Shown here one piece after another: positions 20,920-59,663 of a DNA stretch of 64,000 nucleotides. The notes below the pieces were generated by a model. The model made no database searches. It was given only the letters and a program-made list of their open reading frames with translations, and was not told where the DNA came from. Position numbers and translations under genes: made by a program. Origin of the DNA: Alphaproteobacteria bacterium (GTDB taxonomy: Bacteria; Pseudomonadota; Alphaproteobacteria; UBA9219). Each line of letters begins with the position of its first letter. The stretch's first letter is position 1. The DNA lies in the NCBI GenBank assembly GCA_013289265.1, contig JABDAH010000001.1:61379-125378 (forward strand). Direction: 5' to 3'.

Positions 20920-20931
20920 ATATAATTCCGA

Positions 20932-22880: not shown

Positions 22881-22886
22881 AATATA

Positions 22887-24546: not shown

Positions 24547-25145
24547 GGATTTGTCTCCGTTGACTGCACGTTGAATTCATAACCCCAAGCGATGTTGCGG
24601 TAATGCAATTGCCCAGACCACAAATCGTGCTTGGTATTCATTTGATAATTCGCCTGCCACACTTTTTTGTGTCCAGACATTATCGTGCGACTATATCTGT
24701 CAGCAACCAGTTTGACTAATGAACCCACCAAGCCCTTCTTTACGATGGTCTCCGGCCAATAGAGCAGGACAATATCGGCGAGAATATTTTTAGCCCGCAG
24801 TTGTGAGGGAACCCAAGGTGCTGTTTCAAAATCCGTCCCTTCTTTTGTCCAATTAATAGTCATTATCTTTCGCCCCATAAGATCGAGGCCGATCAATAAA
24901 AAATGTTCCGGCGTTACGCTGATGTGTGCTTCAAATGCAAAATTCTGATCCCCGTAATGTGCTGTCACGAGCTGGACAGCTTCAACGGAATGACCAAGGT
25001 CGGCCGGGTTGGGCATGGTTAAAGCCACGTCAGGCGCGATTTGTACAATTTCTGGAACGTTTGCATCCGATGATGCTTTATCGGTTGAGTTATGGGCACA
25101 AGCGCAAAGAAGCAAGATGAGCGCAAAGGGGATTATGTTTCGCAT
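24543..25145 (-). CDS. lipoprotein (DUF3261-like; APE ApeN-like)
   Basis: lipobox LLLCAC; position between KS and MMPL exporter as in APE clusters. Confidence 0.65.
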   Translation of the reverse strand: MRNIIPFALILLLCACAHNSTDKASSDANVPEIVQIAPDVALTMPNPADLGHSVEAVQLVTAHYGDQNFAFEAHISVTPEHFLLIGLDLMGRKIMTINWTKEGTDFETAPWVPSQLRAKNILADIVLLYWPETIVKKGLVGSLVKLVADRYSRTIMSGHKKVWQANYQMNTKHDLWSGQLHYRNIAWGYEFNVQSTETNP

Positions 25146-25148
25146 CGA

Positions 25149-27476: not shown

Positions 27477-28093
27477 GGATGCACGGAATTGAAGGCCAGT
27501 TTTTCAGCTGCCGAGGGCGGCTTCGACGACAGTGCTTCATTAAGAAAAGTCAATGTATCAGAATCACCGTCCGGTTTTAACAAAACAACATTCTCAACAA
27601 ACTGATGCCCGCTAACCGTAATTGAACTGAAAGGCATTGCTGGGTTATCAGTACGGCGAGGCAGAAGCAGGACTTGCCAATTTTGATCATCTCCGCTTCT
27701 GGCAACTGTAAAATCTGTTTCTAGCGCCTTCCAATTACCTGCGAGAACGCCTCCCAGCATGTCGTAAAGATGAAGCATAAAGGGAATTTTCTGTGCAGGC
27801 AGGCGCATGACATTAATGCCACCAACGCTTTGCACTAATCCGGAAGGAGTAATAACGGTCGTTGTAGGAAATGGCTTCTCCACGCCCCAAATAACTCCAT
27901 GCTCTGGAGCCACCACAAAATGCCCTTCGGAATTCATAGGCCCGTTGAAGCCCTTTAAATTTCTTTCTTCAATAAAGCGACCCCTTAGAATATCGCTGTT
28001 GCCCATCACAACTTGACCTGCATTCGCGTTGGCGGCGAATGCGATTGAAGATGGAAACAAAAAAAGGAAGGCCAATAAGAAGTGGCGTGTCAT
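27473..28093 (-). CDS. LolA-like outer-membrane lipoprotein carrier protein (APE ApeL-like)
   Basis: signal peptide, LolA-size periplasmic protein; ATGA overlap with thioesterase gene. Confidence 0.7.
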   Translation of the reverse strand: MTRHFLLAFLFLFPSSIAFAANANAGQVVMGNSDILRGRFIEERNLKGFNGPMNSEGHFVVAPEHGVIWGVEKPFPTTTVITPSGLVQSVGGINVMRLPAQKIPFMLHLYDMLGGVLAGNWKALETDFTVARSGDDQNWQVLLLPRRTDNPAMPFSSITVSGHQFVENVVLLKPDGDSDTLTFLNEALSSKPPSAAEKLAFNSVHP

Positions 28094-28512
28094 GAGAGGT
28101 CTTTCAATTTATCGGTTAAGGCAGTTGGTGACTCCAGACAAAGCTCGTTTGTTGAGACCTCAACCGCAACTTGAGTGGTGGTCGCTTTCGTTAAAACCTC
28201 ACCGCTAGCGTGGTCACGAATAATATATTCGATCTTCAGGCGGTTTGCAGATTCCAGAATTGTAGCGGAGATAACAAATTTTTGATGAAATCGTATGGGA
28301 CGTATAAATTTCATCTGCATATCAACAATCGGCCAGATATAGCCTGATGCCTGCATTTCGGCGTAGTTATAGCCTATATTATCAAGCAGCTGGCAGCGTA
28401 CTTGTTCCAGAAAACGGGCATAGTTGCCGTGCCACACAACCCCCATGGGGTCGAGATCATAGAATTGTGCCGTGAGTGTTATTTCCGTAGAGACCATGAC
28501 TAGCGCGCCCAA
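28090..28512 (-). CDS. 4HBT-type acyl-CoA/ACP thioesterase (APE ApeK-like)
   Basis: hotdog thioesterase YbgC-like pattern (YDLDPMGVVWHGNY). Confidence 0.75.
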   Translation of the reverse strand: MGALVMVSTEITLTAQFYDLDPMGVVWHGNYARFLEQVRCQLLDNIGYNYAEMQASGYIWPIVDMQMKFIRPIRFHQKFVISATILESANRLKIEYIIRDHASGEVLTKATTTQVAVEVSTNELCLESPTALTDKLKDLS

Positions 28513-30137
28513 AAATCGAAGAAGTTATACCATTGGAAAGGTGCCGAGGCACTGTAATGTTCGAGGCGCGAAGCATATCTTGCCACACAGGCACGTATAC
28601 CTTCTTCGCGCGCGCCACGCGATAATCGAATGTTTTCTGCAAAAGGCTCCATCGTTAGACGATAGCGTCTACCATCCTGCAAACAAAATAACAGATATAT
28701 CGGACAATCAAGTAGGGCGCCAAGTAACCACGGTCCTTGCGGAAAAGCGGCGTCAGCACCAAAAAAAGGCACGAAAACACTATGTTCTTTGCTTAGAACC
28801 GACGTGCGATCACCTGCTATAACAACCCATTCGCCGCGCTCGACGCGTTGCTGAAGATCTATAATAGTTTCTGGCCCTATTTCTGTTACCTGTAATGTAT
28901 TCATGGAAGCTTCAGGGCGGAGCTTGCGCAGCAGGCGATTATAGTTTTCAGCGTGCCGTGTGTGCACCAATATCGTTATTCGTTCCTGCGTTTTTTTATC
29001 GAGAACGGCGCGCGCAACATCTACATTGCCAAGGTGTGCAACAACAATAAGACCGCCGCGTGGATCGTTAGAAAATTCGGCAAGCTGATCGGGATCAGTT
29101 GGCTCAACTGTTATTGCTTTAACATCATCTGTCCATGCAATGAAAACGTCCAGCGACCGCATGGCGAAGTTCATTTGGTGGCGATAACCTTCACCAAAAG
29201 TGGGGGAATGTTTCAAAACTCGCTTTAAGAATTGCCGTGAAGCAAGGCGCTGTTTGTTGCCAAAGAGGTAAAAATACAAAACAATAGGAGCCATGATTAT
29301 TTTGCAGCCTTCACGGCCCAGCAGACGATAGGCGCTTATACAAAATTTTAATCCCCAATAACCCCCACGCTCGGCAAGATCGGCCCAATGTTTTGAAATT
29401 ACCAATTTTGGTGGACGATGAGAAAAAATGGACGGCAACCGCATCAACATAGTTAGGAAAAGACGCGTGTGCATTTTTGTAATTCGCCAGTTGTCGCGCC
29501 AAAGACGGAAGTTGGACGTATTGTCAGCTGGATAAATCACTTTTAATGGCAGCATAACGGGCGCAACGCCGCGCCAAAATAACCGCACCATAATATCCGT
29601 ATCGAATTCCATATGCTGGCCGATTTTCTCTTCGGCCAGAAGCTTCTGCACGGGGGCGAGGGGATAGACACGAAACCCGCACATACTATCTGTTATGCGG
29701 AAGGACAAAGTTTCAATCCATACCCATATATGTGTAATCCAACGGCCAATTTTTCGGCCTGTGGGGATGGAGTTATCATAAACCGGTTGACCACTGATAA
29801 GTGCATCTGGATGCTTTGCGGCTAGTGCCAACATGTGGTGCAAGGCATTCAGATCATGCTGACCATCCGCATCAATTTGTAGCGCATTGGTAAACCCCGC
29901 TGCCTGTGCCAGTTGGAACCCTTTCGTGACGGCGGCTCCCTTACCTTGATTGTTGCTCAGTCGGTGCACAACAATTTTGTTGGCGTCGTCATGCAATGCA
30001 GCGATTACGGAACAAGCTGGTTCGGTGCTGCCATCATCAATAATGAAGACCGGCAAATTGGCTTCGCGCAGTCGCTGAACGACGAGGCCAATCATTTTGT
30101 GATGATTATAACTGGGAACTATTGCGCAAATGTTCAC
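28500..30137 (-). CDS. fused family-2 glycosyltransferase and LpxL/HtrB-type lipid A acyltransferase (APE ApeJ-like)
   Basis: GT2 N-domain (VPSYNHH, FIIDDGS, DADGQHD) plus C-terminal lauroyl-acyltransferase-like domain; track ORF starts 30260 but GTG 30137 overlaps upstream stop (GTGA). Confidence 0.75.
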   Translation of the reverse strand: MNICAIVPSYNHHKMIGLVVQRLREANLPVFIIDDGSTEPACSVIAALHDDANKIVVHRLSNNQGKGAAVTKGFQLAQAAGFTNALQIDADGQHDLNALHHMLALAAKHPDALISGQPVYDNSIPTGRKIGRWITHIWVWIETLSFRITDSMCGFRVYPLAPVQKLLAEEKIGQHMEFDTDIMVRLFWRGVAPVMLPLKVIYPADNTSNFRLWRDNWRITKMHTRLFLTMLMRLPSIFSHRPPKLVISKHWADLAERGGYWGLKFCISAYRLLGREGCKIIMAPIVLYFYLFGNKQRLASRQFLKRVLKHSPTFGEGYRHQMNFAMRSLDVFIAWTDDVKAITVEPTDPDQLAEFSNDPRGGLIVVAHLGNVDVARAVLDKKTQERITILVHTRHAENYNRLLRKLRPEASMNTLQVTEIGPETIIDLQQRVERGEWVVIAGDRTSVLSKEHSVFVPFFGADAAFPQGPWLLGALLDCPIYLLFCLQDGRRYRLTMEPFAENIRLSRGAREEGIRACVARYASRLEHYSASAPFQWYNFFDFWAR

Positions 30138-30484
30138 GTTCGTGTCCCCAGCTTTAATTGACCAGAAGACATAAGGACATCCTTTGATTGGTACGCGAAT
30201 GAAAGTCGCTTTTTTAAATTGTCCAGTTTCAGCGTAAGGGAAATTGGCACGCCGGGACAAATAATATTGCGAAATTTTACCTGAAAGTCGTGCACAGGCG
30301 GCTCCTTAATACCAAGATGAATGGCGGCAAAACGCACTGCCCAATCAATCTGCACGACACCGGGCAAAATGGGATTGTCAGGAAAATGACCGCGAAAAGC
30401 TTCTAACTCAGGCGACATGTCTATAGCGAGAATGACTTCGTTTTCCTTTGATTTATCAGTGGTAAGAACGACAGGAAGTTTCAT
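30134..30484 (-). CDS. hotdog 3-hydroxyacyl-ACP dehydratase (FabZ-like; APE ApeI-like)
   Basis: HFPDNPILPGV motif; start at MKLPVV immediately after ligase stop. Confidence 0.75.
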   Translation of the reverse strand: MKLPVVLTTDKSKENEVILAIDMSPELEAFRGHFPDNPILPGVVQIDWAVRFAAIHLGIKEPPVHDFQVKFRNIICPGVPISLTLKLDNLKKRLSFAYQSKDVLMSSGQLKLGTRT

Positions 30485-42885: not shown

Positions 42886-42920
42886 AAGCCTTGCCGTTAT
42901 GCGGCAGGGCTTTTTCTTTT
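42886..42920. terminator. rho-independent terminator (bidirectional) after rplS / GT4 gene
   Basis: GCCTTGCCG-TTAT-GCGGCAGGGC hairpin followed by TTTTTCTTTT. Confidence 0.7.
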
Positions 42921-44013
42921 AGAAAAGTTGGGTATACAAACCTGCTGCCCGCTCGAACGTGAAGTGTATACCGCGTTGCCGGAGTAATGTGGCATCCTGC
43001 GGATGGTCCAGCGTTTCTAACATCGCAGTAGCCATTGCTGTGTCATCCCCAACGGGGACAAGTTTGCCGTAGCGGCCCGCTTCTAGAATCTCCGGTGGGC
43101 CGCCGCAATTAGTGCTGACAATATTTGTACCGCAGGCCAGCGCTTCAACTACAACATTGCTCATACCCTCATAATGGGAAGACACTGCAACCAGGGCCGC
43201 ATTTCGGATGAAGGGCAGAGGGTTTGGCTGGAATCCAGGCAACAAAACATATTCATCAATGCCAAGCTGTTTGGCCAGTTGCTGCAACTCGCTACGTTTT
43301 GAACCTTCACCCAAAATCACCAGCCGCAAATCTTTGTTTTTCCGTGCAAGTGCGAAAGCTTTGATCAATGTGGTGAAATCTTTTTCTTCCGAAAGACGGC
43401 CTATGCCCAAAATAACAGGCGGCGCGTTTTCTGCGAACCATGGATGCGAATTTTTTTGCCGAGATTTCTCGGCAAAATCGGGCCCGACAATAGGGTTATA
43501 AATGACTGTGATTTTGTCTAGGGGAATATGGGCAGTTTCGGCCAAATCAACCGCAACGGCATTGGATACAGCAACAATACCGTCCGCCCACGGTAGGAAA
43601 ATCCGGTACAGCAAAGGCAGAATTTTATATTGCCAGTTTTTGTGCGCTTTGGTTTCTGCCGACAACAGGCTGTGCTGGCAGCAGAGTAGGCGCATCGGCA
43701 TTTTCGCCAACGTCCGAGCCCACAGACTGATGATATTGCCATGCCCCATATTGGCGATGAAGACATCGGGCTTTGCGCGTTGCATATAGCGCATCAGCGG
43801 CAGAAAGGATAACAGCGAGCGATTGCCACCAAGGGTGGCCACAGCGATGTTTGGGGGAATAGTGTTGACCAATGGGCCGTCTGGCCGCTGCGTCAGAATA
43901 GTCACTTTATGACCGGTTGCCGTGAGTGCCGCCGCCAGATTTATAGTCACGCGTTCTGCACCGCCTGCTGCAAAGGTAGGAATAAAAAGCGTGACGGATT
44001 TGCCGGCACTCAT
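42919..44013 (-). CDS. family 4 glycosyltransferase
   Basis: GT4 C-terminal EX7E-type region (SSHYEGMSNVVVEALACG). Confidence 0.8.
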   Translation of the reverse strand: MSAGKSVTLFIPTFAAGGAERVTINLAAALTATGHKVTILTQRPDGPLVNTIPPNIAVATLGGNRSLLSFLPLMRYMQRAKPDVFIANMGHGNIISLWARTLAKMPMRLLCCQHSLLSAETKAHKNWQYKILPLLYRIFLPWADGIVAVSNAVAVDLAETAHIPLDKITVIYNPIVGPDFAEKSRQKNSHPWFAENAPPVILGIGRLSEEKDFTTLIKAFALARKNKDLRLVILGEGSKRSELQQLAKQLGIDEYVLLPGFQPNPLPFIRNAALVAVSSHYEGMSNVVVEALACGTNIVSTNCGGPPEILEAGRYGKLVPVGDDTAMATAMLETLDHPQDATLLRQRGIHFTFERAAGLYTQLF

Positions 44014-45908
44014 GCAGTGCCAAACAGGATGCGTAATTTCGATTTCTCGTTGGGCGCCAGATTGCCCGTAAACACAAGGCGTGTTGTTTGTTGTTTTTTG
44101 CCAAAGCTGGGAGAATAGGATGCATCCGTCCGTATTTTTATTTCCAGCGGCCCTTCGTAATGAAGACGGGCAAAGATGTCTTCAGCTTTTTTGATTGTAA
44201 TTTTACCGTCGTCATTCTGAATTGTTAAATCAGGGTGCAACAGATAGCCAATCTCAGCATAATGTTTTTCTCCCCCTGAAATATAATCCGTTATTACTGC
44301 GCCTGTTTCAGAACTGAATTCAACACGGCGGCGATGCAGCGTTTCATATTTTTGGATATAACCGTCATGTTCGGCCTCAACAAACCAGTTGCTATCACTT
44401 AGTTGCTTATCGACAATTCGTACATTGGCTTTGTGCGACCAATTGAATGCTCCCGAAATAGTGCTGGAGTTTGTATGTTCAAGGCACAAAGTATTATGCG
44501 CTGCTGTGCCGCGGAAGGCGTCGCGCTCTGCGCCGCCAGAGTGATAGAGATAGGTTCCGGCATCAACAAAAACGGGCTGGCCATCAATATGGAGCCATAC
44601 ACTAAGCGCGTCGGCATGTCCGTGGGCGGCAATAGACAGATGGCCTAAATTTCCGTGATCAAAAGCGAGCATAATATCGCGACCATTAATATAGTGTCTG
44701 CCAATCGTATAGCCGCCATATTCAAAACATTTTACACCTAACGGCGCGGGGGTCAGCGTCACTGTTGGCCCAAGCAATAACTGTCGCAGGTGTGATGATT
44801 GTGGCTGCTCGGCATTTAGGCAGCCCAGAACTGAACTTACATAATTCGCGTCATGTAATCCGATGACGCAGCCATTATCATCATCGCCGATATGGGGTTG
44901 GTTGCCCTTGGTGTCGGTTATCCAGCGCAAAAATTCACCGCCACGCGCCATCCGTTGGCGATACCGCTGTGGTACTTTCACGCCGTGCGTTTGTGCCAGA
45001 AACGCCGACAGAGCAAATAGTTCCAGCACAAAGGCGCCGTAGGATACGGCTTGTTCTGCACCAACACCGTCGGGCCGAATTTGTTTGTCGACATTATCGC
45101 AAAGAATGGACCAGCCTGTTTCTTTCCACCATGCCGCTTCCGGCAATTGCGGGCATAAGCAGCCGATGAAGAACAACCCCGCGCCTTCTGCTACGCGGTG
45201 ATTATTGGCCGAGCTATAAAGCGACGGATAGCGTGCGAGCCACCGGCCATGGATTTCCAGCGTATTCCAGATTTTGGCACGCTGCGCAGTTTCCAGATAT
45301 TCACCGACAAGACTTACAACAACCAGAATGCTAATAGTGCGAAGGGCAAGTTCAATCCCAGACAGCCAGTTGATACCGCGATAAGGTGGATTGCTGTCAA
45401 TCCAACTCTCAATTTCATTTAGACAAAAGCGGCCCATTTCGGGGTCGCGTTTTTTAAATGCCAGCGCCGCTATGGGTTGCAGATATTGCAGGCGGTTAAG
45501 TTCCCAGACATATTTTACATCGCCCATGTCGGAATTATGACGGTAGTTGATATCGAAGCTATAGAGATCGTGCGGCCAGAATTTTTCAGTTACAGGATCA
45601 AGATGCCAGCGTTTGTTTTTTGCGCAGGGCGGCCAAGGTTGATTGAGAAACTGAAATTCACCTTTCTTTGCGTCGTCATAGATTTTTTGCCACGAAGTAA
45701 GTAATTCGTTTGAGATCGAGGCCGCATCCAGTTTTTCGTGTAATTTAGAAGAAACGGTGAAAGGGCCGTAATCCTGAGGTGTTGGAAGCGTTGCGGCTTT
45801 GTCCTGATAGCGCTTGATAGCTTCTTCGAGGCGGTACAAAGCTTCCGATGTTGACATCGACGCCAGGCGACGCTGATACCACAAAGCTTTTTCCAGTAAG
45901 GGTTTCAT
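44010..45908 (-). CDS. heparinase II/III-like protein (polysaccharide lyase/modification family)
   Basis: 632 aa; conserved WELNR, INWLSGIELALR blocks typical of Heparinase_II_III-like proteins in EPS loci. Confidence 0.6.
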   Translation of the reverse strand: MKPLLEKALWYQRRLASMSTSEALYRLEEAIKRYQDKAATLPTPQDYGPFTVSSKLHEKLDAASISNELLTSWQKIYDDAKKGEFQFLNQPWPPCAKNKRWHLDPVTEKFWPHDLYSFDINYRHNSDMGDVKYVWELNRLQYLQPIAALAFKKRDPEMGRFCLNEIESWIDSNPPYRGINWLSGIELALRTISILVVVSLVGEYLETAQRAKIWNTLEIHGRWLARYPSLYSSANNHRVAEGAGLFFIGCLCPQLPEAAWWKETGWSILCDNVDKQIRPDGVGAEQAVSYGAFVLELFALSAFLAQTHGVKVPQRYRQRMARGGEFLRWITDTKGNQPHIGDDDNGCVIGLHDANYVSSVLGCLNAEQPQSSHLRQLLLGPTVTLTPAPLGVKCFEYGGYTIGRHYINGRDIMLAFDHGNLGHLSIAAHGHADALSVWLHIDGQPVFVDAGTYLYHSGGAERDAFRGTAAHNTLCLEHTNSSTISGAFNWSHKANVRIVDKQLSDSNWFVEAEHDGYIQKYETLHRRRVEFSSETGAVITDYISGGEKHYAEIGYLLHPDLTIQNDDGKITIKKAEDIFARLHYEGPLEIKIRTDASYSPSFGKKQQTTRLVFTGNLAPNEKSKLRILFGTA

Positions 45909-47113
45909 TATTTTACCTCAGTAAAAAGTGCATCGTAAGCGGCAAGCAGTTTTGGAGCTTCGTAACTCCATGCCAATTCTTTTTCAATGCGATTGCGGCC
46001 AAAGGCTCCCATGCGTTCGCGTTGCTCAGGCTTATCAAGCAATTCGACAATTTTTTCTGCCATATCGACGGCATCATTCGGCTTGGCATAGAGAGATGCT
46101 TCGCCGGCCGAAAATTTTCCTTCCGTAACATCGAACTGCACTATCGGTTTACCGAGCGCCATATATTCCATTATTTTGTTCATGGTAGATTTATCATTCA
46201 TCGCATTGACGGTGTCGGGATTAACGCAGACATCTGCGGTGTTGAGAATTTCCAGCATTTCTTTATCAGGAACACGCCCGGTAAAGGTCACGTAACTGTC
46301 AAGATTATAGCTACGGCATAGATCGCGCATTTCATCTAGTGCGGGGCCACCGCCTACCAAGGTAAAATGAATGTCGGTGCGCTGCAAATGGTAAACAATA
46401 TGTCGCACCGCGTCCAATAAATAGGGAATACCTTCTTGCTGTCCCATCACGCCAACATAGCCAACCAAGAATTTCTTTCCCATTTTTAAGACAAGCGAAG
46501 AAGGTAGAATTTTCAATCTCGATAAATCAGGGCCGGATCGTACGACGAAAACTTTTTCGGGACGCATTTTATTGCGTTCAATGGCAATCTGACGGTAGCT
46601 GTTATTGGTGGCTATTGATATGTCTGCAACCGCAAATGTCAGTCTTTCCGACCACAACATGAGTTTGTAGAAAAAATCGCGCCGTCCGAATTTAGCTTCG
46701 TAAAGCTCTGGGTTTATATCATGATGATCGAATAAAAATTTTTTGCCAAAGAAGTATTTAAAAAATCCACCGATCAGAAAAATATTATCAGGCGGATTGC
46801 AGGCGTGAATAACATCAAAGTCCTGCATGAGGAATATTTTACAGGCCAGAAAGAACTCCCAGAACAGGGATGTTGTGTATTCAATGAGGTATCCAAATGC
46901 GCCTTTAGCTTCAAGTGGCAATGGATGACGGTAAATAGTGATGCCGTCGATAATTTCGTGACCGGCAGTATAATCACGTGCTTTCGGGCATATGACTGAA
47001 ACCTTATAGCCGCTTTGCGCCAATGTAGTGGCTTCCTGCCAAACGCGACGGTCAAAGGGAACTGGCAGGTTTTGCACGATGATCAGAACGCGCCGCGCCA
47101 TATTCACCAGCAA
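45908..47113 (-). CDS. family 4 glycosyltransferase (WbuB-like)
   Basis: 401 aa GT4 with N-terminal Glyco_trans_4-like and C-terminal GT1 core. Confidence 0.78.
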   Translation of the reverse strand: MLVNMARRVLIIVQNLPVPFDRRVWQEATTLAQSGYKVSVICPKARDYTAGHEIIDGITIYRHPLPLEAKGAFGYLIEYTTSLFWEFFLACKIFLMQDFDVIHACNPPDNIFLIGGFFKYFFGKKFLFDHHDINPELYEAKFGRRDFFYKLMLWSERLTFAVADISIATNNSYRQIAIERNKMRPEKVFVVRSGPDLSRLKILPSSLVLKMGKKFLVGYVGVMGQQEGIPYLLDAVRHIVYHLQRTDIHFTLVGGGPALDEMRDLCRSYNLDSYVTFTGRVPDKEMLEILNTADVCVNPDTVNAMNDKSTMNKIMEYMALGKPIVQFDVTEGKFSAGEASLYAKPNDAVDMAEKIVELLDKPEQRERMGAFGRNRIEKELAWSYEAPKLLAAYDALFTEVK

Positions 47114-48414
47114 ATGCCGTTATAATGCTGATGTTTTTCCAATGTTGGAATGCGAACAAAATCAACAATCTGCTGTTCGGGGCGCAGCCATTCACCGATT
47201 TGTGCAAATTCCGGCGCGTTGTGGCCTATCACAATGACTTCGCTGGGGGCCAAAACCTCCTGAACATCATTTGCCATTAACCGCTCGATATGCGGAATAG
47301 CTTTCATAATGTAATCACGGTTGGCGCCGACCAGTTTGGCGATGTTGACGGATTGGTCATACAGTTTCAGGTCATAGCCTTTACCAATCAGGCGCTCGAT
47401 AATTTGCACCATTGGGCTTTCGCGCAGATCATCTGTTCCGGCCTTAAAACTGAAACCTAGAATGCCGATGCTTTTTTTACCGTGAGATGTGATGGTCTCC
47501 AGTGCCTGCTCAATCTGAACCTGATTGGACGTCAGGATCGAATGCAGCAGAGGAAGTTGAAGATCTTGATTGCGCGCTTTATGTGTCAGGGCGCGCAAAT
47601 CTTTTGGCAGGCATGAGCCACCGAAAGCAAAACCGGGTTTCAGGTAGGCGCGAGAGATATTGAGCCTGTCGTCCTGACAAAAAACGTCCATTACTTGGTG
47701 GCTGTCGATATTATTGGCTTTGCAGAAGGCGCCGATCTCGTTAGCAAATGTAATCTTGTTGGCATGCCATGCATTGTCCGTATATTTAATCATTTCGCCG
47801 GTTTCAATGGCGCAGTGAATAATCTGACCCGGCAGGCCTTGATACAACTCCGCAACCATGTTGCCGGAGCGAGAATCTGTAGAACCGATTACGGTCTTAG
47901 CTGGGTGATTAAAATCATCAATGGCTGTGCCTTCGCGTAAAAATTCGGGATTGTTGCAAACGCCAAAATCCTTGCCTGCTGTCCATCCTGTCACATTTTC
48001 TAGAATGGGAATGACAATATTGCGCATTGTGCCGGGTAGAAGCGTGGAACGAATGGCGACGGTATGGAAAGAGTTTTTCTTGGCGAGCGCCTGCCCAATA
48101 TCTCTGCATGCATTTTCCAGATGGCGCGTATCGATACTGCCATTGTTGTTGCTCGGCGTGCCGACGCAGACAAAGGAGATATCGGTTTTAAAAATAGCGT
48201 TTTCGGTATCGATCGTCGCTGTTAAATAGTTATTGTTAACAGCGTGTTCGATCAATTCACTAAGCTGCGGTTCGATTATGGGCGAGCGGCCCGATTTGAT
48301 CATATCGACCTTAACGGGGTTAGTATCCACACCAATAACATGATGTTTCCGCTCCGCAAAACATGCGGCGGATACGGAACCAACATAGCCAAGTCCGAAT
48401 ATACTGACTCTCAT
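47104..48414 (-). CDS. GDP-mannose 6-dehydrogenase (AlgD-like nucleotide-sugar dehydrogenase)
   Basis: 436 aa; near-collinear with P. aeruginosa AlgD from MRxSIFGLGYVG through catalytic GFAFGGSCLPKD to C-terminal GICW. Confidence 0.8.
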   Translation of the reverse strand: MRVSIFGLGYVGSVSAACFAERKHHVIGVDTNPVKVDMIKSGRSPIIEPQLSELIEHAVNNNYLTATIDTENAIFKTDISFVCVGTPSNNNGSIDTRHLENACRDIGQALAKKNSFHTVAIRSTLLPGTMRNIVIPILENVTGWTAGKDFGVCNNPEFLREGTAIDDFNHPAKTVIGSTDSRSGNMVAELYQGLPGQIIHCAIETGEMIKYTDNAWHANKITFANEIGAFCKANNIDSHQVMDVFCQDDRLNISRAYLKPGFAFGGSCLPKDLRALTHKARNQDLQLPLLHSILTSNQVQIEQALETITSHGKKSIGILGFSFKAGTDDLRESPMVQIIERLIGKGYDLKLYDQSVNIAKLVGANRDYIMKAIPHIERLMANDVQEVLAPSEVIVIGHNAPEFAQIGEWLRPEQQIVDFVRIPTLEKHQHYNGICW

Positions 48415-48514
48415 AAGGCTTCTTGGGTTTTGAACAGCGGCGCCGCGACAGGTTGCCTAGCGCAAAAGGAGGGAATTCGGCTTTAGCATAGAGATTTGAG
48501 GCGGCAAAGGCTTT

Positions 48515-49606
48515 TTAACCTGCCGGATGCCCACCATATTTTTTACGAACAGCAATCATAGGTTTTTCAATTAGTTGGTTGGATGCCGCCGATAAAATAA
48601 GTGTCAACAGGAAGTAGCTGGCTAAGGCCGTCGGACTGGTAAGGCCAGTTCCTGTGTGGTGGGTCGCCATATCGACCAAGGCCAACGCGCCATAATGAAA
48701 TAGATAGAGCGAGTATGACATGCGTCCGATGAGAAGGAGAATGGAATGGGATAAAATAGTTTTTGGCCCACCCCATTGGCCAAAAAGGATATTCAGCATC
48801 ACCACGGCGATGGACATTGACTGCAGGGTGAAGCGCAGAGTTTCGCGGAACAAATCATTCCGGTAAATCAGGCTGAACAGCAAAATAATTGCTGCGAGCA
48901 TAAAGCTGGTGGGGTTGATAAAAAAACGGCGCACGCGGTCTTGCCAATAATGCATGCCGATTGCGGTGATGCTACCGTAAAGAATGCAGTCGAAAATAGT
49001 ATCTGTGCCAAAAAAACGTTCTTTGCCTGTTAAACCGCATAGCGCCCACGGCGTTTCTTGGCAGGAGGTAAACAGTGCGTATCGCCAAATCAAGACGGCG
49101 GTAACGGCTATAAATAGCCACGGCATAATACCCTGCAGGTTTTTTCGAAAAACGACCAATGCAAGCGGAAACAAAAGATAAAAATGTTCCTCCACCGAAA
49201 GCGACCATAAAATCGGCATCGGGCTATGGTCTGGATAGCCGACAAAAATATGATAGTAGTTGGCGAAATAAGATAGACCGCTGAGAATATGCACCCATGT
49301 AATAGGCGAGCCCATCAGAAGCAGAATGGGGCATATCAGCCCGAGATAGAACAATAGGGCAGGGGCCAACCGCAGAAATCGCCGCAGGTAAAATCTGGAA
49401 ATATTTAACTGGCCGGTTTTTTCGATTTCATTGATCATTTGCCGCGTCAGCAGAAAGCCGCTGATGACAAAGAAAATGCCGACGCCTAGGCCGCCGGGCA
49501 CAATATGTTCAAACCCGGCATGCGAGAAGATAACCAGCAGGATGGCTACGGCGCGCAGGCCATCAAGTACAGGAAGATAGTCATGAGATTTAGGAGGCGC
49601 TGTCAA
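48515..49606 (-). CDS. acyltransferase family 3 membrane protein (polysaccharide O-acetyltransferase-like)
   Basis: 363 aa, 10 TM, N-terminal LDGLRAVAILLVIFSH motif. Confidence 0.78.
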   Translation of the reverse strand: MTAPPKSHDYLPVLDGLRAVAILLVIFSHAGFEHIVPGGLGVGIFFVISGFLLTRQMINEIEKTGQLNISRFYLRRFLRLAPALLFYLGLICPILLLMGSPITWVHILSGLSYFANYYHIFVGYPDHSPMPILWSLSVEEHFYLLFPLALVVFRKNLQGIMPWLFIAVTAVLIWRYALFTSCQETPWALCGLTGKERFFGTDTIFDCILYGSITAIGMHYWQDRVRRFFINPTSFMLAAIILLFSLIYRNDLFRETLRFTLQSMSIAVVMLNILFGQWGGPKTILSHSILLLIGRMSYSLYLFHYGALALVDMATHHTGTGLTSPTALASYFLLTLILSAASNQLIEKPMIAVRKKYGGHPAG

Positions 49607-51273: not shown

Positions 51274-53094
51274 ATGAACGACACGACGAAAACAATCCCC
51301 CAAAAGCCTCTGGCCTTTATGCTTTATATGCTGAGGCCCTACAGGCTTCGTGTGGCGGTGCTTCTTATATGCGTTTTTGTCGGCGCATCGACGGAAAGCC
51401 TACAGCCTTATGTCATCAAACTACTGGTTGATAGTTTAAGCGGCGGCGCAGACATTCATTCGGATATTTTTCTGCATCGTGCCTGTATGGCAGGTTTGGT
51501 TTTCGCCGCCTTACGTATTCTTATTCCGTCGGCTTGGTGGATGTTTAACACGCTTTACCGGCGTATTTCTCCAGCCATCGAGACAACAATAAGACGGGAT
51601 TTGCTGGAACGACTTTTGCGCCACCCCTATCCGTGGTTCCTGAACGGTTTCGCGGGCCGCACGGGGCAACGCATCGATACGGTGGTTCGTTCTTTCCGGG
51701 AGTTTTTCTTATTGGCTACGGACGACATGTTTTATGTTTTTGTCCGTGGCGTAACGTTACTGGTCATGCTCGGCAGTACGGATTTATATCTGGGGCTTGG
51801 CATGTTGATCTGGGCAGCCGCTACCGCACCCATCCATATTAAACTGAGTTCTATAAATGAGAAAAAAGTTTATGTCTGGATTGGAAAAGTGGGCCAGTTC
51901 ACTGAGCGTATCGTTGATATATGCATCAATATCTTCAGCGTGCGGTCGAATGGCGGTGCGATCCTTCGCGAACAGCAGGATTGCCGCGGTTTTGCCGAAG
52001 ATATTCAGCGACAGGAAATGCAAGTCGTCAAGACATGGCGGCTGATCAGCGCAACGCGTACTAATTTGAATACGTTGCTTTATGCAGTTTTATTCATCAC
52101 CGGTTTTTGCCGTTGGCGCACAGGCCACATTACAGTGGGTGATCTGGCTATGACTTTATCTTCCGGCATTCTCATGGTCGATATCATGGACAATTTCCTG
52201 AAGAAAAATCAGCAGGTCGCACAGGTGTTCGGCAATTTACGGGAGTCTCTGGAAGGGTTGCTCGGTGACTTGCCGCCACCGCCGAAATTCTTGCCGGTTT
52301 TTCAGCCGCACAAAGGCGCAATCGATTTCAACGCGATTTCTTTTGGGTACTTGGCGGATAAAAAAGTTTTGCATGGTTTTTCCCTAAATATCAAAGCGGG
52401 CGAGAAAGTGGCATTAGTAGGCCCATCTGGCGCTGGTAAATCCACGCTGATTTCCCTGTTGCTTGGTTTATGGGATGCGCAAGAGGGACAAATTCTGGTC
52501 GATGGTCAGGACATTACACACATTGACCGTGAAAGCCTGCTGCGCCAAATCGCCGTTATCCCGCAGGATACATCGCTGTTTCATCGCACATTGTACGACA
52601 ACATAGCCTATGGCAGTGACAAGGCTGACCATGCTTCGATAGAAGCCGCAGCAAAGGCGGCGCATATCCATGATTTTATTATGGCGCAGCCCCTTGGTTA
52701 CCAGACAATGGTTGGCGAGCGCGGGCTAAAACTTTCCGGCGGGCAGCGGCAACGCATTGCCGTGGCCAGAGCCATTTACAAAAACGCCCCAATTCTTTTG
52801 TTGGATGAAGCGACATCAGCGCTCGATAGTGAATCTGAACAGGCTATTCAGGATGCGCTGCATAAGTTGATCCCGGAAAAAACGGTTCTGGCTATCGCGC
52901 ATCGTCTGTCGACTATTGCTGATGTCGACCGGATTGTGGTTCTGGAAGCAGGACGTATAGTCGAGCAAGGTAGTCACGCCGAATTGCTAGCGGCCAAGGG
53001 CCGTTATGCCCGACTTTGGGCGATGCAGTCAGGGGGATATTTACCGGAACCACCTGCGTATGAATGGGATACGCCTGCATCTGCGTTATCCTGA
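51274..53094 (+). CDS. ABC exporter, fused permease/ATPase (MsbA-like)
   Basis: 6-TM domain plus Walker A GPSGAGKST, signature LSGGQRQR. Confidence 0.88.
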   Translation: MNDTTKTIPQKPLAFMLYMLRPYRLRVAVLLICVFVGASTESLQPYVIKLLVDSLSGGADIHSDIFLHRACMAGLVFAALRILIPSAWWMFNTLYRRISPAIETTIRRDLLERLLRHPYPWFLNGFAGRTGQRIDTVVRSFREFFLLATDDMFYVFVRGVTLLVMLGSTDLYLGLGMLIWAAATAPIHIKLSSINEKKVYVWIGKVGQFTERIVDICINIFSVRSNGGAILREQQDCRGFAEDIQRQEMQVVKTWRLISATRTNLNTLLYAVLFITGFCRWRTGHITVGDLAMTLSSGILMVDIMDNFLKKNQQVAQVFGNLRESLEGLLGDLPPPPKFLPVFQPHKGAIDFNAISFGYLADKKVLHGFSLNIKAGEKVALVGPSGAGKSTLISLLLGLWDAQEGQILVDGQDITHIDRESLLRQIAVIPQDTSLFHRTLYDNIAYGSDKADHASIEAAAKAAHIHDFIMAQPLGYQTMVGERGLKLSGGQRQRIAVARAIYKNAPILLLDEATSALDSESEQAIQDALHKLIPEKTVLAIAHRLSTIADVDRIVVLEAGRIVEQGSHAELLAAKGRYARLWAMQSGGYLPEPPAYEWDTPASALS

Positions 53095-56050: not shown

Positions 56051-56808
56051 TTAGTTTCTTATATCTTGTGTCCAGTCGCCGCATGCAGCTTGCCAGCAGC
56101 TGATAGCGCTGATAGCTGCGGTATCGGCGCGTAAAATGCGCGGACCTAATTGTACAAATACGGCATTGGGAATTGCGTGAAACTTTTGCAACTCATCTTC
56201 CGTGAAACCACCTTCAGGGCCAGTGACGATAGCAACTTTGGATGCTGTTTGCAGGGCAGGGGACTGAAAAGCCTGTTTCAACGGCAATGCCTGGCCGAAT
56301 TCTGCGCAAACAATAAGCGTGCGATCCTGCGGCCAGCCTGTTGATAACTCTGCAAGCGTCACAGGTTTTGCGATTACCGGAATATTCATGCGCTCTGATT
56401 GCTCGGCGGCTTCGGTAGCAATGGAAGTACAACGTTCCACATTCACTTCGCGAATTTGCGTGCGCGATGTGAGAACTGGTTTGATGCGTGCCACGCCAAG
56501 CTCCGTCGCTTTTTCGATCATATAATCAAAATGCGCTTTCTTGATCGGCGCGCAGCATAGCCATAAATCTGGCTCGCCCTTCTGTGGCTTCAACTGTTTT
56601 TGAAGTGTAACTAAAACGGAACGTTTTTTAATTTCGCTGATGACGCCAGCCCATTCACCGTCGCGCCCGTTGAACAGGCGCAAGGCATCGCTCGCCTTCA
56701 GTCGCATTACATGCTGCAGGTAATGCGCCTGATTGGCTTCAATAGTTAATGTTAGTCCCTGCCCCAAATCGTTAATAACGTACAGGCGCGGTGCGTGCTG
56801 AATATCCA
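56051..56808 (-). CDS. rsmE: 16S rRNA (uracil1498-N3)-methyltransferase
   Basis: RsmE/DUF558 PUA plus SPOUT domains; start at MDIQHAPRLYV (track ORF extends to GTG 56905). Confidence 0.8.
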
Positions 56809-56913
56809 TGAGCCGGGTTTTATCACTGAAAGTGATCGCCGGAAATGGATTTAACTGACGGATACATATTGAAGCGGCTACAAACTTCGGTATATGTATC
56901 CCCACCGCTGCAT

Positions 56914-57003
56914 GGATGGGTGTCCGAGTGGTTTAAGGAACCGGTCTTGAAAACCGGCGAGGGTGCAAGCTCTCCGTGGGTTCGAATCCCACCCCATCCG
57001 CCA
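56914..57003 (+). tRNA. tRNA-Ser (anticodon TGA)
   Basis: acceptor GGATGGG/CCCATCC, anticodon loop CTTGAAA, long variable arm, TTCGAATCC T-loop, encoded CCA. Confidence 0.85.
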
Positions 57004-57133
57004 TATACTTCGACGAATTAACGATAATAATGGTTATTTTTAACCTGCATCTTGGTTAAAAGATGAAAGCATTTACAGGGTTTGATTTAAGTTAGGTTTG
57101 GTTACTATAGTCTTCAGGTAATCAATATATCTA

Positions 57134-58171
57134 TTGGTCATTACTGTGATACCAGAATTACACATTAACAGCCCTAAAAGTTTTCTTGATGCCTGCGTTA
57201 TAATAGGCGGATTGGATGCTTGTGAAGTATTAGATGGATTGCAGACATTATATCTTCACTGTCGGGCTCCACTTGATGCCCAAGGGAAAAGAAGTGAGTC
57301 TTATGTTTCGGAGCAAAGCATCCTTATTCTCCGCATGATTGCCAATAGAACTGATATTTACAATAGAAACAGATTCACAATAAGATATTCGGATGCCATC
57401 AAAGCCTCTGTAACCCTTATTATTTCAAACAGACCTCCTATTCCTCTGAATATAGAATCTCCACAGACATTACCGGATATACTGATCAATAAGCCGCATA
57501 GCCCGCGCAAGTTTTTCTCAATTCCACAATCACCTTCCGAAACACTAAAGCCTGGATCAGAAAAAGATAAGCCTTTAAAACCTAAGCCATTCACCTGTGT
57601 ATCTTTGGAATTATCGAAACTTTCTCCAGCCATAATAAAAAGAGCAAATAGTAACTCTAGAATCTGGCGAATACGTATTTCTGATTTTAGTTTAATGCTT
57701 GTCCCTCAGAAAAGTAAAGTAGACTTAAGGGCTGCCTCGGAAGTATTAAGTGCTGACCAGATAGAAATAGATTCCCAATATGGTTATTTTCGGACGCCCG
57801 GTGGGCAAAAAATTCTTAAAGCTTTGCCTCAATATAGAGACTGCGCTCTAAAGGAATTAACGCAGGAAATCGCTGAATGGTTATCATTTCGGGGCCTCAT
57901 ACCCAACATTCGTCAGATTGGGAACGTCAACAAACCCCCTGTTCCTTCGGTGGCGCGACGAATAGAAGGGCAGCTTGCTGCGATCGCTTTGTTGCTTGCT
58001 AAGAATGAGGGGAGCAGTGATTGGAAAAGACGTATAAAGAAATTTTTTGACAGCAAAACAGTGCCTTCAGGGGCCGCAAATGATACCCATGATACCCATG
58101 GTAATATTGTAGCTTCTCATCCGGATTATCTCAGCATAAATATGAAAAGGCATTTCGGTCTTGAAACTTAA
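57134..58171 (+). CDS. hypothetical protein, AT-rich islet, paralogue A
   Basis: 345-aa ORF in approx 38-40 percent GC region directly 3' of tRNA-Ser; shares YxxTxxGxKxLKxAPxx and L(T)xEIxxWLSFxGxIPN blocks with next ORF. Confidence 0.55.
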   Translation: MVITVIPELHINSPKSFLDACVIIGGLDACEVLDGLQTLYLHCRAPLDAQGKRSESYVSEQSILILRMIANRTDIYNRNRFTIRYSDAIKASVTLIISNRPPIPLNIESPQTLPDILINKPHSPRKFFSIPQSPSETLKPGSEKDKPLKPKPFTCVSLELSKLSPAIIKRANSNSRIWRIRISDFSLMLVPQKSKVDLRAASEVLSADQIEIDSQYGYFRTPGGQKILKALPQYRDCALKELTQEIAEWLSFRGLIPNIRQIGNVNKPPVPSVARRIEGQLAAIALLLAKNEGSSDWKRRIKKFFDSKTVPSGAANDTHDTHGNIVASHPDYLSINMKRHFGLET

Positions 58172-58222
58172 ACACGTACTCGCTTTTATATTTTAACCAG
58201 CTTTGTTGCGAACTTTTTTGCT

Positions 58223-58957
58223 ATGAAAATAACTATCGGATTAGTCGGCTTTAAAGTTATGCGAGAAATGACGCTTGGATCGACGTTAAGGCCGGTCCGA
58301 GTTATTGAGTCTCCCCCTCTTTTAAAGAAACAGACGAAAAGTACTCATTTTAAATATCTTAACAGAAGCCTTACGCCTAAAGGTTTTAGATCTCGATCAT
58401 GGACTCGTAATTTCTCAAAACAGCCAATCAGGTTACTAAATAGGCCGGTTACAGACTTATATTTCACCGTAAGGAAGGCTATTACATATCCCTTGTTAGT
58501 TACCGGAATGGGAGAAAAAAGTTGTGCTTTATATCCTTGTTGTCCTTACCTAAAGACAAAAGATGGCCGAAAGCTTTTAAAAATTGCTCCCGAGCTTGCT
58601 GATCTAACAATTGATGGCTTAACGGAGAAGATTATTGCATGGTTGTCATTTAATGGCCATATCCCCAATCTTGCTATGAGCCAGCGACCCGCGCCGATAT
58701 CAGAAAGAAACTTTTTGCAAAAGATCGATAACGCTAGAAATTCTTTGAAAGGGTTGTTGGGCACTGGCAATGGTGAAAATGAACAAAAAAAGTGGGTTTA
58801 CTTTTACGCGCTTCATTTAAATCCAGTCTATATGGCTCAAGCCCCTCTCCAACCTTACAAATATGAATTTTTGTTCCCGTCATATGTAGGTGCCTTTGAT
58901 CCCTATACTGCGGCGAGGCAGAAGGTATCCTTTTACCTAGGCTCTTTGAAACCATAA
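58223..58957 (+). CDS. hypothetical protein, AT-rich islet, paralogue B
   Basis: 244 aa; paralogous to 57134..58171. Confidence 0.55.
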   Translation: MKITIGLVGFKVMREMTLGSTLRPVRVIESPPLLKKQTKSTHFKYLNRSLTPKGFRSRSWTRNFSKQPIRLLNRPVTDLYFTVRKAITYPLLVTGMGEKSCALYPCCPYLKTKDGRKLLKIAPELADLTIDGLTEKIIAWLSFNGHIPNLAMSQRPAPISERNFLQKIDNARNSLKGLLGTGNGENEQKKWVYFYALHLNPVYMAQAPLQPYKYEFLFPSYVGAFDPYTAARQKVSFYLGSLKP

Positions 58958-59291
58958 AAATCCTAAACAAACCCTTGACTAGCCGATCAAATAATCATAA
59001 AAACGCGAGCCTTTTTGGAGTCGGTGGTAGATCCGTGATGCGCTAACCCTTTAAATATCAAGGGCTAAGCGAGGAACGCAATCTAGACGAGGCTCCGGAT
59101 GTTGCAAAAGTTGCATAGCCTGTGTTGACGATTACGGCTGTCGGCGAGGGAAACCTTTTCAGACGTGTCGAGTCATCCGGTGTTAGGTAATAAGTACCCC
59201 ACGCGGAGCGCTGAACCCTATAGCGCTCTGAGGTGGGTTTTGCGTTTTGAAGATAAGTTCGTCTGATCGACATCGATTAAATGGAGTATGG

Positions 59292-59663
59292 ATGCCTACA
59301 ATTAACCAATTGATCCGCAAGAAGCGCCAGCCGCTTAAAACGCGTGACAAGGTTCCGGCCCTGCAGGAAAGCCCGCAAAAGCGCGGCGTCTGCACCCGCG
59401 TTTATACGACTACGCCAAAGAAGCCAAACTCGGCTCTGCGTAAGGTCGCGCGCGTCCGTCTGACCAATGGCCATGAAGTTATCAGCTACATTCCCGGCGA
59501 AGGCCACAACCTGCAAGAACATAGCGTCGTGATGATCCGCGGCGGTCGTGTAAAGGATTTGCCAGGCGTTCGTTACCACATCATCCGCGGCACGCTCGAT
59601 ACGCAAGGCGTGAAAGACCGCAAAAAGCGCCGTTCGATGTACGGCGCGAAACGTCCGAAGTAA
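59292..59663 (+). CDS. rpsL: 30S ribosomal protein S12
   Basis: [10 protein letters not shown]...; GGAGT RBS; track ORF upstream extension rejected. Confidence 0.95.

Follow-up and report, generated by a model that had tools for sequence, protein, structure and literature searches.

The AT-rich DNA that follows a tRNA-Ser(TGA) gene in this genome raises a question of origin, as it could be foreign DNA that entered at the tRNA or a resident locus whose genes diverge very fast. An earlier note on this DNA had pointed to the former, namely horizontally acquired effector, toxin or defence cargo beside a tRNA. The window, i.e., the whole stretch of 64 kb that was analysed, carries the tRNA gene at 56914-57003 on the + strand (ARAGORN; Rfam tRNA model, 58.8 bits). 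This gene is intact, encodes its CCA and has a GC content of 0.60. It constitutes the left border of the islet, since the GC content drops from the first base 3' of the tRNA. The marked drop that had been described is real: positions 57004-58990 have a GC content of 0.397, versus 0.506 in the remaining window, and the lowest 1-kb value of the whole 64 kb (mean 0.502, sd 0.031) falls there. The left edge given in the note stands, but the right edge does not, since the conserved promoter and leader of rpsL begin at about 58955-58975 rather than after 58990.

This native rpsL promoter and its structured 5' leader (58976..59291, + strand) were delimited by alignments with the corresponding loci of the relatives L083, L025, L164, L165 and L167, in which the CTTGAC box and about 300 nt of leader are conserved. 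Folding of the aligned leaders by RNAalifold gives 65 pairs, 11 of them with compensatory changes, and no Rfam family matches the leader at E<=1. As this conserved region lies outside the islet, it sets the right boundary of the AT-rich stretch, which is 1.95 kb long. The conserved left-hand neighbour is rsmE (56051..56809, - strand), which encodes the 16S rRNA m3U1498 methyltransferase (Pfam PF20260 and PF04452 on the called gene) and served as the synteny anchor.

The stretch contains the two ORFs previously listed and no other. ORF1 (57134-58171, + strand) has 345 codons when read from a TTG start, the JGI, NCBI and Logan gene calls preferring a GTG at 57146, which gives 341 aa. ORF2 (58223-58957, + strand), called in the same three assemblies, encodes 244 aa from an ATG, and its stop codon adjoins the conserved rpsL promoter region. 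Upstream of ORF1, a non-coding AT-rich spacer of 130 nt (57004..57133, + strand) includes one sigma-70-like site (TTGATT-18-TATAGT, 57082-57111); such sites are not enriched in the region, the promoter scan finding 5 versus 5.6 expected from shuffles. In the 51-nt spacer between the ORFs (58172..58222, + strand), no terminator-like site was detected on the + strand; this would allow co-transcription, which is probable for ORF1 and ORF2.

It could be asked whether these ORFs are genes at all, or rather non-functional sequence, with pseudogenes in decay, or with ORFs that arose by chance or de novo where AT-rich intergenic DNA had expanded. Their homologues are found nowhere, the intergenic DNA at this place is AT-rich in all relatives, ORF1 requires a TTG or GTG start, and AlphaFold2 models derived from a two-sequence alignment are unusable (pLDDT 33 for ORF1 and 31 for ORF2). 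Neither ORF is preceded by a strong Shine-Dalgarno motif, but this motif is also missing from 8 of 19 host genes and present in the other 11. Furthermore, the 345 and 244 codons lie on a single strand and occupy 91% of the stretch, with a longest stop-free run of 349 codons, whereas the runs obtained by shuffling average 91 and never exceed 214. Both ORFs show the order GC1>GC2>GC3, and their mutual identity at codon positions 1, 2 and 3 is 0.49, 0.56 and 0.34. This concentration at positions 1 and 2 indicates long-term selection at the protein level since the duplication. Between P0003 and P0001, the translation of the start codon is the sole difference, so that there is no population variation for a dN/dS estimate. 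Taken together, these coding signatures argue that ORF1 and ORF2 are genuine long coding ORFs, and a non-functional origin appears very improbable.

The two proteins are paralogues, as had been noticed, and the motif blocks then quoted are found, although the similarity is confined to one common block of 88 aa with 31% identity (BLASTP, E 5e-10). This core corresponds to aa 218-301 of ORF1 (YFRTPGGQKILKALPQ...LTQEIAEWLSFRGLIPN; 57785..58036, + strand) and to aa 109-192 of ORF2 (58547-58798, + strand). Beyond it, the segments that precede and follow the core are not significantly similar, with only a weak echo between the N-terminal regions (p 0.006). ORF1 is a soluble protein of pI 9.5 made of an N-domain (aa 9-75; 57158..57358, + strand; delimited by alignment to aa 3-68 of L169_269, an ORF of a relative described below), a Pro/Ser/Lys-rich linker (about aa 98-160) and the shared core (aa 216-262). 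ORF2 is also soluble, with a pI of 10.0 and a net charge of +20 over its first 120 residues. According to low-confidence models, the common module of about 45-88 aa may consist of short beta-strands and, after them, an amphipathic helix that contains Trp.

Neither protein has a signal peptide or a transmembrane segment (maximum 19-residue hydropathy 1.37) and neither matches Pfam or NCBIfam, any family of the PADLOC-DB v2 defence HMMs at E<=1, or PHROGs; the initial description of proteins without signal peptide or recognisable domain is therefore confirmed. Two candidates were regarded as noise. The first is DUF2059 for aa 215-248 of ORF1 (E 0.16; 12.5 bits versus a gathering cut-off of 23.6), for which a 34-residue stretch aligns to part of a 60-position model and which has no match in ORF2. 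The second is phrog_38415 (PHROGs, E 0.44). With ORF1 and ORF2 as queries, a word-indexed search of 5.8 billion clustered proteins retrieved the two proteins themselves and nothing else, as did an HMMER profile search that covered 1.84 billion representatives exhaustively, and the best E of profile searches against the PDB was not below 0.65. In the same way, translated searches (tblastn) of phage (50,697) and plasmid (72,556) records yielded nothing at E<=0.1, and an ORF1/ORF2 profile found nothing in IMG/VR contigs by pattern scan and tblastn. With nothing similar among billions of proteins, the suggestion of a novel family holds, and ORF1 and ORF2, as far as their sequences tell, define a new protein family. 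They also have the attributes of ORFans, as standard searches detect no homologue outside a narrow lineage, and, compared with core genes, their AT content is higher and their codon adaptation poorer: GC3 is 0.344 for ORF1 and 0.376 for ORF2 versus 0.55 ± 0.06 for host genes, and a CAI-like index is 0.58 versus 0.75 ± 0.04.

Such values are classic signals of foreign DNA and speak against a resident locus. The islet could thus be what is left of an integrative element that was recently acquired at the 3' end of tRNA-Ser, then lost its integrase and attR and kept two cargo paralogues. This would fit both the GC drop at the first base past the tRNA and the fact that the paralogues are anciently diverged yet equally AT-rich, as if a pre-diverged pair had arrived together. 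Furthermore, integrative elements are reported to be a major source of ORFans (PMC2718499, PMC13012023). However, the islet carries no integrase or other mobility gene, only two ORFs without Pfam, NCBIfam or PHROG match. The earlier note had itself seen neither an integrase nor an attachment-site duplicate, and the search that it recommended for a direct repeat of the tRNA 3' end gave nothing above the null: local alignment over 57004-59400 reaches a score of 22, versus a shuffle mean of 18.2 and a maximum of 27. An 11-mer, CGGTCTTGAAA (56942 and 58156; anticodon arm), considered as a possible att repeat, is at chance level. The phage and plasmid records and IMG/VR contigs, which hold nothing similar to the two proteins, also count against such an element.

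The comparison with related genomes also bears on this question. Relatives, annotated as Alphaproteobacteria or Rhodospirillales MAGs, were found by a protein search with RsmE followed by contig look-ups. Their RsmE identity is 62-74%, the nearest relative being only 74% identical, and the host belongs to a group of Alphaproteobacteria that has been little sampled and in which the interval precedes the str operon (rpsL). The comparison covered ten syntenic loci (L025, L083, L164, L165, L166, L167, L168, L169, L171 and L172), and the gene order around the interval is conserved over about 20 kb in L165-L168 and L171. In another look-up, P0020, the gene context differs. ARAGORN detects no tRNA between rsmE and rpsL at any of these ten loci. 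An intact tRNA without the island was thus found at none of these loci, and no attB can be demonstrated. Alignment of the DNA at the left boundary with that of the relatives is uninformative, no repeat, integrase or transposase is present at any relative locus, and traces of the relatives' small ORFs are absent from the window.

In every relative, the GC content of the interval is 3-12 points below that of the surrounding locus, so that the deviant composition of the islet is not peculiar to it. Between rsmE and rpsL, ORFs without a Pfam match, mostly of low GC3, are present in seven of the ten syntenic relatives. The interval ORFs of L163 (114 aa), L164 (129 aa), L002 (at least 117 aa), L169 (269 aa), L171 (121 aa) and L172 (160 aa), none with a Pfam match, all have the orientation of rpsL (6/6), and their GC3 is low (0.36-0.48) in five cases and 0.60 in L172. 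Opposite-strand CSD-like ORFs occur in L167/L168 and L172 (GC3 0.36 and 0.42). The ORF stops no more than about 20-30 nt from the rpsL -35 box, in L164 as in the window. No ORF occupies the interval in L165/L166, L083 and L025, which favours an acquired element and weighs against a resident locus. However, relatives without a tRNA bear mostly low-GC3 orphan ORFs at the same site, one of them homologous to ORF1 (see below), and this, together with the negative PADLOC scans, leaves the proposal of tRNA-targeted effector, toxin or defence cargo unsupported. A recent integrative element, although it deserves consideration, appears rather unlikely.

The homologous ORF is L169_269, which has the same place, orientation and architecture as ORF1. 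The N-domain of ORF1 aligns to aa 3-68 of L169_269 with a Smith-Waterman score of 57 (empirical p 0.0003), and a profile of the N-domains of L169, L163 and L164 detects ORF1 1-130 with p 0.0067. The register is identical in an hhalign alignment of the N-domains, which however lacks significance (P 0.14). A second chained block, with a score of 42, joins residues 218-250 of ORF1 to aa 154-186 of L169_269. For this core, hhalign (A6 vs A7) gives P 0.001 with a probability of only 21%, and the core profile of ORF1 versus L169_269 gives p 0.0023. The chained score of 99 is higher than any obtained from 3000 shuffles, which reach 96, or from 1708 real decoys, which reach 94, and when the test was reversed, ORF1 came first among 1051 decoys (99 versus 87). 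This pair is the sole outstanding one among 16 candidates, with a Bonferroni-corrected p of about 0.005-0.02. When ORF1 and ORF2 were compared with 29,695 ORF segments, the positional ORFs were not significant and were not listed at E<=1, so that the claim of homology rests on the positional prior. With this prior, L169_269 appears detectably homologous to ORF1, through weak similarity in two collinear blocks. ORF1 and L169_269 thus share the features proposed for a family of the rsmE-rpsL interval, namely locus, orientation and a collinear N-domain and core.

Other relatives have partial architectures, with the N-domain alone in L163 and L164 and the core alone in L171. They are linked to L169 (L169-L163, p 0.0005; L169-L171, p 0.0005) and L163 to L164 (p 0.0005; E 0.01 database-wide). 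No direct similarity of ORF1 or ORF2 to the ORFs of L163, L164, L171, L172 or L002 was detected, even though L163 and L164 are the two closest relatives by RsmE. ORF2 has no direct match in any relative, and only the core that it shares with ORF1 links it indirectly to them. The positions conserved in ORF1, ORF2, L169_269 and L171_121 are hydrophobic or aromatic (Y/F, F/L, L, I/L, W) and not polar residues of a catalytic type. The earlier note had reasoned that orthologues of similar GC content at the same locus in all relatives would indicate a core region. This expectation is partly borne out, through the homology of L169_269 and the low GC of the interval everywhere, but not entirely, since some intervals are empty of ORFs.

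A similar distribution could arise if the rsmE-rpsL interval were an insertion hot spot that repeatedly captures mobile orphan genes, ORF1 and L169_269 being members of the same mobile family that landed twice. The contents of the interval indeed vary widely (0-2 ORFs of 114-345 aa), include the opposite-strand CSD-like ORFs of L167 and L172, and in most pairs show no detectable similarity. However, none of the loci has repeats, integrases or transposases, and orientation and end point are the same where these were checked (window and L164). The chain of similarities from ORF2 through ORF1 to L169, and then to L163-L164 and L171, also speaks against repeated capture, and copies elsewhere were not found in 15 billion proteins. 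Such a hot spot is therefore improbable.

On balance, the islet is best read, with moderate confidence, as a resident, clade-restricted and rapidly diverging protein-coding locus located between rsmE and the rpsL promoter, and duplicated in this genome. ORF1 and ORF2 probably belong to a rapidly diverging family that precedes the rpsL operon in related alphaproteobacteria. This family would already have been present at the rsmE-rpsL locus in the common ancestor of lineages whose RsmE proteins are 62-74% identical, and would later have undergone vertical inheritance with very fast sequence turnover, loss or gain of domains and occasional loss. A single tandem duplication, in this genome, would have given ORF1 and ORF2. 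Their low GC content and poor codon adaptation could result from weak constraint and AT-biased mutation, or from an ancient import that was never ameliorated, rather than from a recent transfer. As for the tRNA-Ser, it would have moved in, or stayed, beside the locus in this lineage alone. It should be emphasized that, according to a recent study (PMC13012023), imported genes prevail among the ORFans of E. coli, which runs counter to a resident origin.

The function of this resident locus can be suggested with low confidence only: the proteins could be soluble, basic and non-enzymatic, with a small module that binds proteins or nucleic acids. Genes of this type appear to be dispensable accessory genes, as the interval is empty in some relatives. 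Since no terminator lies ahead of the rpsL promoter, transcripts of the islet may extend into this promoter. A far more speculative proposal, which has very little probability, is that of a clade-wide hypervariable gene coupled to the str operon, whose products would modulate S12, S7, EF-G or translation, or whose read-through would tune the promoter and leader of rpsL. Its diversification would be driven by conflict, for example with phages or with aminoglycoside-like or fusidic-acid-like antagonists of these ribosomal components. The conserved position and orientation at the rpsL -35 box, the lack of an intervening terminator and the rapid divergence allow this proposal.

If the resident origin is correct, an apparent tRNA-linked foreign island would in fact be a resident gene that diverges too fast for database searches and can be traced only by synteny and weak collinear similarity. 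It would then call for caution when composition and tRNA adjacency are used to call horizontal transfer, and would bear on the debate about ORFan origins (import, rapid divergence or de novo birth; PMC12315717, PMC13012023). In practice the locus has modest importance, as nothing so far suggests an unusual mechanism.

Among known systems, defence and toxin-antitoxin cassettes resemble this locus in having two small, adjacent and co-oriented genes that evolve fast, have an atypical composition and are dispensable. However, ORF1 and ORF2 are paralogues of each other and not a complementary pair of toxin and antidote, and they have neither a PADLOC, Pfam or NCBIfam match nor conserved enzymatic motifs. 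With tRNA-linked islands, the locus shares its position directly 3' of a tRNA, a sharp drop in GC content and a cargo of unassigned function. It differs from them by its length of only 1.95 kb, by the lack of an integrase and of a repeat of the tRNA 3' end, and by relatives that have no tRNA here yet carry similar orphan ORFs at the site. The locus also resembles ORFan genes that arise by rapid divergence at a conserved place. ORFans, according to PMC3514957 and PMC12315717, are shorter and AT-richer than other genes and for which rapid divergence is one of three proposed origins. Like the ORFans described there, ORF1 and ORF2 are found in a narrow clade, are AT-rich and poorly adapted in codon usage, and vary in length and presence. 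Unlike usual ORFans, they are long (345 and 244 aa), lie in tandem as two paralogues that share an anciently diverged module, and have a positional continuity across genera that is traced only through weak similarity in two blocks.

The GC content drops right after an intact tRNA-Ser(TGA) gene with an encoded CCA (56914-57003, + strand; ARAGORN, Rfam), to 0.397 in 57004-58990 versus 0.506 elsewhere in the window, and the 1-kb GC minimum of the whole window (mean 0.502, sd 0.031) falls within this stretch. The marked fall after the tRNA described in the earlier note is thus confirmed. Composition and left edge of its islet (57004-58990) also stand but the right edge actually lies at about 58955-58975, since conservation of the rpsL promoter/leader starts around 58976 and similarity to the relative L164 starts at the stop codon of ORF2.

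Two + strand ORFs occupy 91% of 57004-58990: ORF1 (57134-58171; 345 aa from TTG, or 341 aa from GTG 57146, the start chosen by gene callers) and ORF2 (58223-58957; 244 aa). Their lengths, their paralogy and the motif blocks quoted for them were correctly reported: BLASTP aligns 88 residues with 31% identity (E 5e-10), whereas no further relative was found within the 64-kb window. The longest stop-free run of the AT-rich stretch reaches 349 codons versus a mean of 91 and a maximum of 214 in 2000 composition-preserving shuffles. Both genes show GC1>GC2>GC3 (0.47/0.41/0.34 for ORF1, 0.42/0.41/0.38 for ORF2), and nucleotide identity in the aligned paralogue block is 0.49/0.56/0.34 at codon positions 1/2/3, which reads as the signature of protein-level constraint since the duplication. 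Codon usage is clearly atypical, with these GC3 values against 0.55 +/- 0.06 in host genes and a CAI-like value of 0.58 against 0.75 +/- 0.04. Shine-Dalgarno motifs are weak or absent, as they are absent from 8 of 19 host genes. Both proteins are basic (pI 9.5 and 10.0) and predicted to be soluble, lacking any predicted TM segment; ORF1 carries a Pro/Ser/Lys-rich linker and the first 120 residues of ORF2 are strongly basic (net charge +20). An 18-nt inverted repeat, 89% complementary, flanks ORF1 (57053-57070 / 58182-58199), which by a rough estimate is near chance for AT-rich DNA. The motif TTTTAACC(T/A)GC precedes both ORFs (57038-57048 / 58191-58201). Repeat or motif could be an operator or promoter element common to both genes and copied with them in the duplication.

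The absence of any recognisable domain, noticed from the sequence alone, holds in database searches. Neither protein matches Pfam, NCBIfam, PADLOC or PHROGs. A word-indexed search of 5.8 billion proteins returned only ORF1 and ORF2 themselves, from assemblies of one organism, and profile searching with HMMER, exhaustive over 1.84 billion representatives, found no homologue. PDB, IMG/VR (queried with the ORF1/ORF2 profile) and phage and plasmid records (translated searches) likewise gave nothing. The AlphaFold2 models were unusable (pLDDT 33 and 31); in both, the core common to the two proteins (ORF1 aa 218-301; ORF2 aa 109-192) is weakly suggested to form three short strands then a helix. The islet is a genuine feature, and its two proteins form a new family.

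RsmE-seeded scans covered GTDB genomes and JGI metagenomes. Among the matches listed, rsmE and rpsL of the distant relatives L025 and L083 are divergent neighbours separated by 402 and 576 bp, which contain neither tRNA nor ORF. The source genome and closer relatives (RsmE 62-74% identical) were not among these matches, so that they alone would have given a misleading picture of synteny; the closer relatives came instead from an RsmE protein search followed by contig look-ups. The window, L165/L166, L167/L168 and L171 share about 10-20 kb of gene order: heparinase-like, GT, UDPG-DH, acyltransferase, Ysc84, CobS, TldD, GshA, RsmE, the interval, then rpsL-rpsG-fusA-tuf. The interval is empty in L165/L166 as in L083 and L025, and contains an ORF of 114 aa in L163, 129 aa in L164, at least 117 aa in L002, 269 aa in L169, 121 aa in L171 and 160 aa in L172, all in rpsL orientation and without Pfam match. 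Most of them have a GC3 of 0.36-0.48 versus a locus GC of 0.47-0.56, except that of L172 (0.60). In every relative, the interval GC is 3-12 points under that of its own locus, so a low GC here is a trait of the clade and not peculiar to the genome of the window. On the opposite strand, that of rsmE, L167/L168 and L172 carry CSD-like ORFs of 185 aa (L167:9355-9912, +) and 233 aa (L172:3615-4316, +), whose cold-shock-domain matches are weak or faint; the two are homologues (phmmer E 7e-8) and unrelated to ORF1/ORF2.

Gene turnover is common around this locus, since an ABC transporter between CobS and TldD (51274-53094, +; 606 aa, ABC_membrane + ABC_tran) is missing from the syntenic relatives compared (L165, L167) and extra small genes lie between GshA and TldD in L165 (178-aa ORF without Pfam match) and L167 (amidoligase). 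A polysaccharide cluster (42919-49606, -), syntenic in L167/L168, encodes two GT4 glycosyltransferases, a heparinase II/III-like protein, UDP-glucose dehydrogenase and acyltransferase-3; its GT4 gene 45908-47113 contains the window's second-lowest GC region (0.436, 46001-47000). Another cluster (20383-30260, -), similar to those for aryl-polyene or specialised lipid biosynthesis, contains two beta-ketoacyl synthases, a short-chain dehydrogenase/ketoreductase, a low-GC (0.435) chorismate-pyruvate-lyase-like gene, a 775-aa ORF without Pfam match (25149-27476) and a glycosyltransferase-2/lipid-A-acyltransferase fusion.

In a 10-sequence comparison, the 269-aa ORF of L169 matches ORF1 exactly on the paralogue core, that segment of the L169 ORF is matched by the 121-aa ORF of L171, and the ORFs of L163 and L164 match each other and the L169 N-terminus. 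Except for L163-L164 (E 0.01), these links are not significant among 29,695 decoy ORF segments; the ORFs were therefore tested as candidates preselected by position. The core profile hits the L169 protein with an empirical p of 0.0023, and hhalign of {ORF1, ORF2} against {L169, L171} yields a 37-column alignment in the expected register (P 0.001, probability 21%). A second independent block links aa 9-75 of ORF1, its N-domain, to L169 aa 3-68 (Smith-Waterman score 57, p 0.0003), hhalign giving the same register non-significantly (P 0.14). Chained in collinear order, the two blocks score 99, a value reached by none of 3000 shuffles (maximum 96) or of 1708 real proteins 220-330 aa long (maximum 94); with the L169 protein as query, ORF1 ranks first among 1051 real decoys (99 versus 87). 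Of 16 candidate pairs, only this one, which shares an architecture of N-domain, Pro-rich linker and core, stands out (p about 0.005-0.02 after Bonferroni). Homology between ORF1 and the L169 protein is probable, not proven.

The earlier note had read the locus as typical of a tRNA-linked island with acquired cargo. Its composition, the empty interval of some relatives and passages of PMC2718499 and PMC13012023 that favour import as the source of ORFans would all agree with a recently acquired element. However, every specific hallmark that could be tested is lacking: as the note itself had remarked, the stretch has no integrase or obvious attachment-site duplicate, and the search that it proposed for a repeat of the tRNA 3' end found none above the shuffled null. 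The spacing from tRNA-Ser to rpsL, which it proposed to compare, has no counterpart in relatives: the interval varies in occupancy and lacks a tRNA at all 10 syntenic loci. We consider recent acquisition the less likely reading, though one of real weight, and the tRNA-island framing probably wrong; most economically, the tRNA adjacency is lineage-specific and incidental.

Most parsimoniously, a gene confined to this clade would already have lain between rsmE and the rpsL promoter prior to the divergence of these lineages. It would evolve very fast, losing domains and sometimes the whole gene, and a tandem duplication in the lineage of the window would have produced ORF1 and ORF2. AT-richness and poor codon adaptation could result from weak constraint or from an ancient import never ameliorated. 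Positions conserved in ORF1, ORF2 and the L169 and L171 proteins are hydrophobic/aromatic (Y/F, F/L, L, I/L, W), with no conserved polar catalytic-type residue, and pI spans 4.6 to 10.1 across positional ORFs, being basic in this genome. Because of this conservation, predicted solubility and the dispensability of the gene in some relatives, we tentatively favour a small non-enzymatic interaction module, protein- or nucleic-acid-binding.

Since no + strand terminator was found between ORF1, ORF2 and the rpsL promoter, co-transcription of the two genes and read-through to rpsL are possible. Alignment upstream of rpsL reveals strong conservation of the promoter (CTTGAC) and of a 5' leader about 300 nt long (58976-59291; on the - strand of relatives, L164:144-420, L165:3962-4250, L167:8932-9225, L083:4178-4500). 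RNAalifold on five sequences predicts a multi-helix structure of 65 pairs, 11 with compensatory changes, and Rfam has no family for it at E<=1. In this alphaproteobacterial clade, it may be an undescribed ribosomal-protein leader of the str operon.

While the family is new, the phenomenon is already known, that of fast-evolving lineage-restricted orphan genes: passages of PMC3514957 and PMC12315717 describe ORFans as typically AT-rich and count rapid divergence among their proposed origins.
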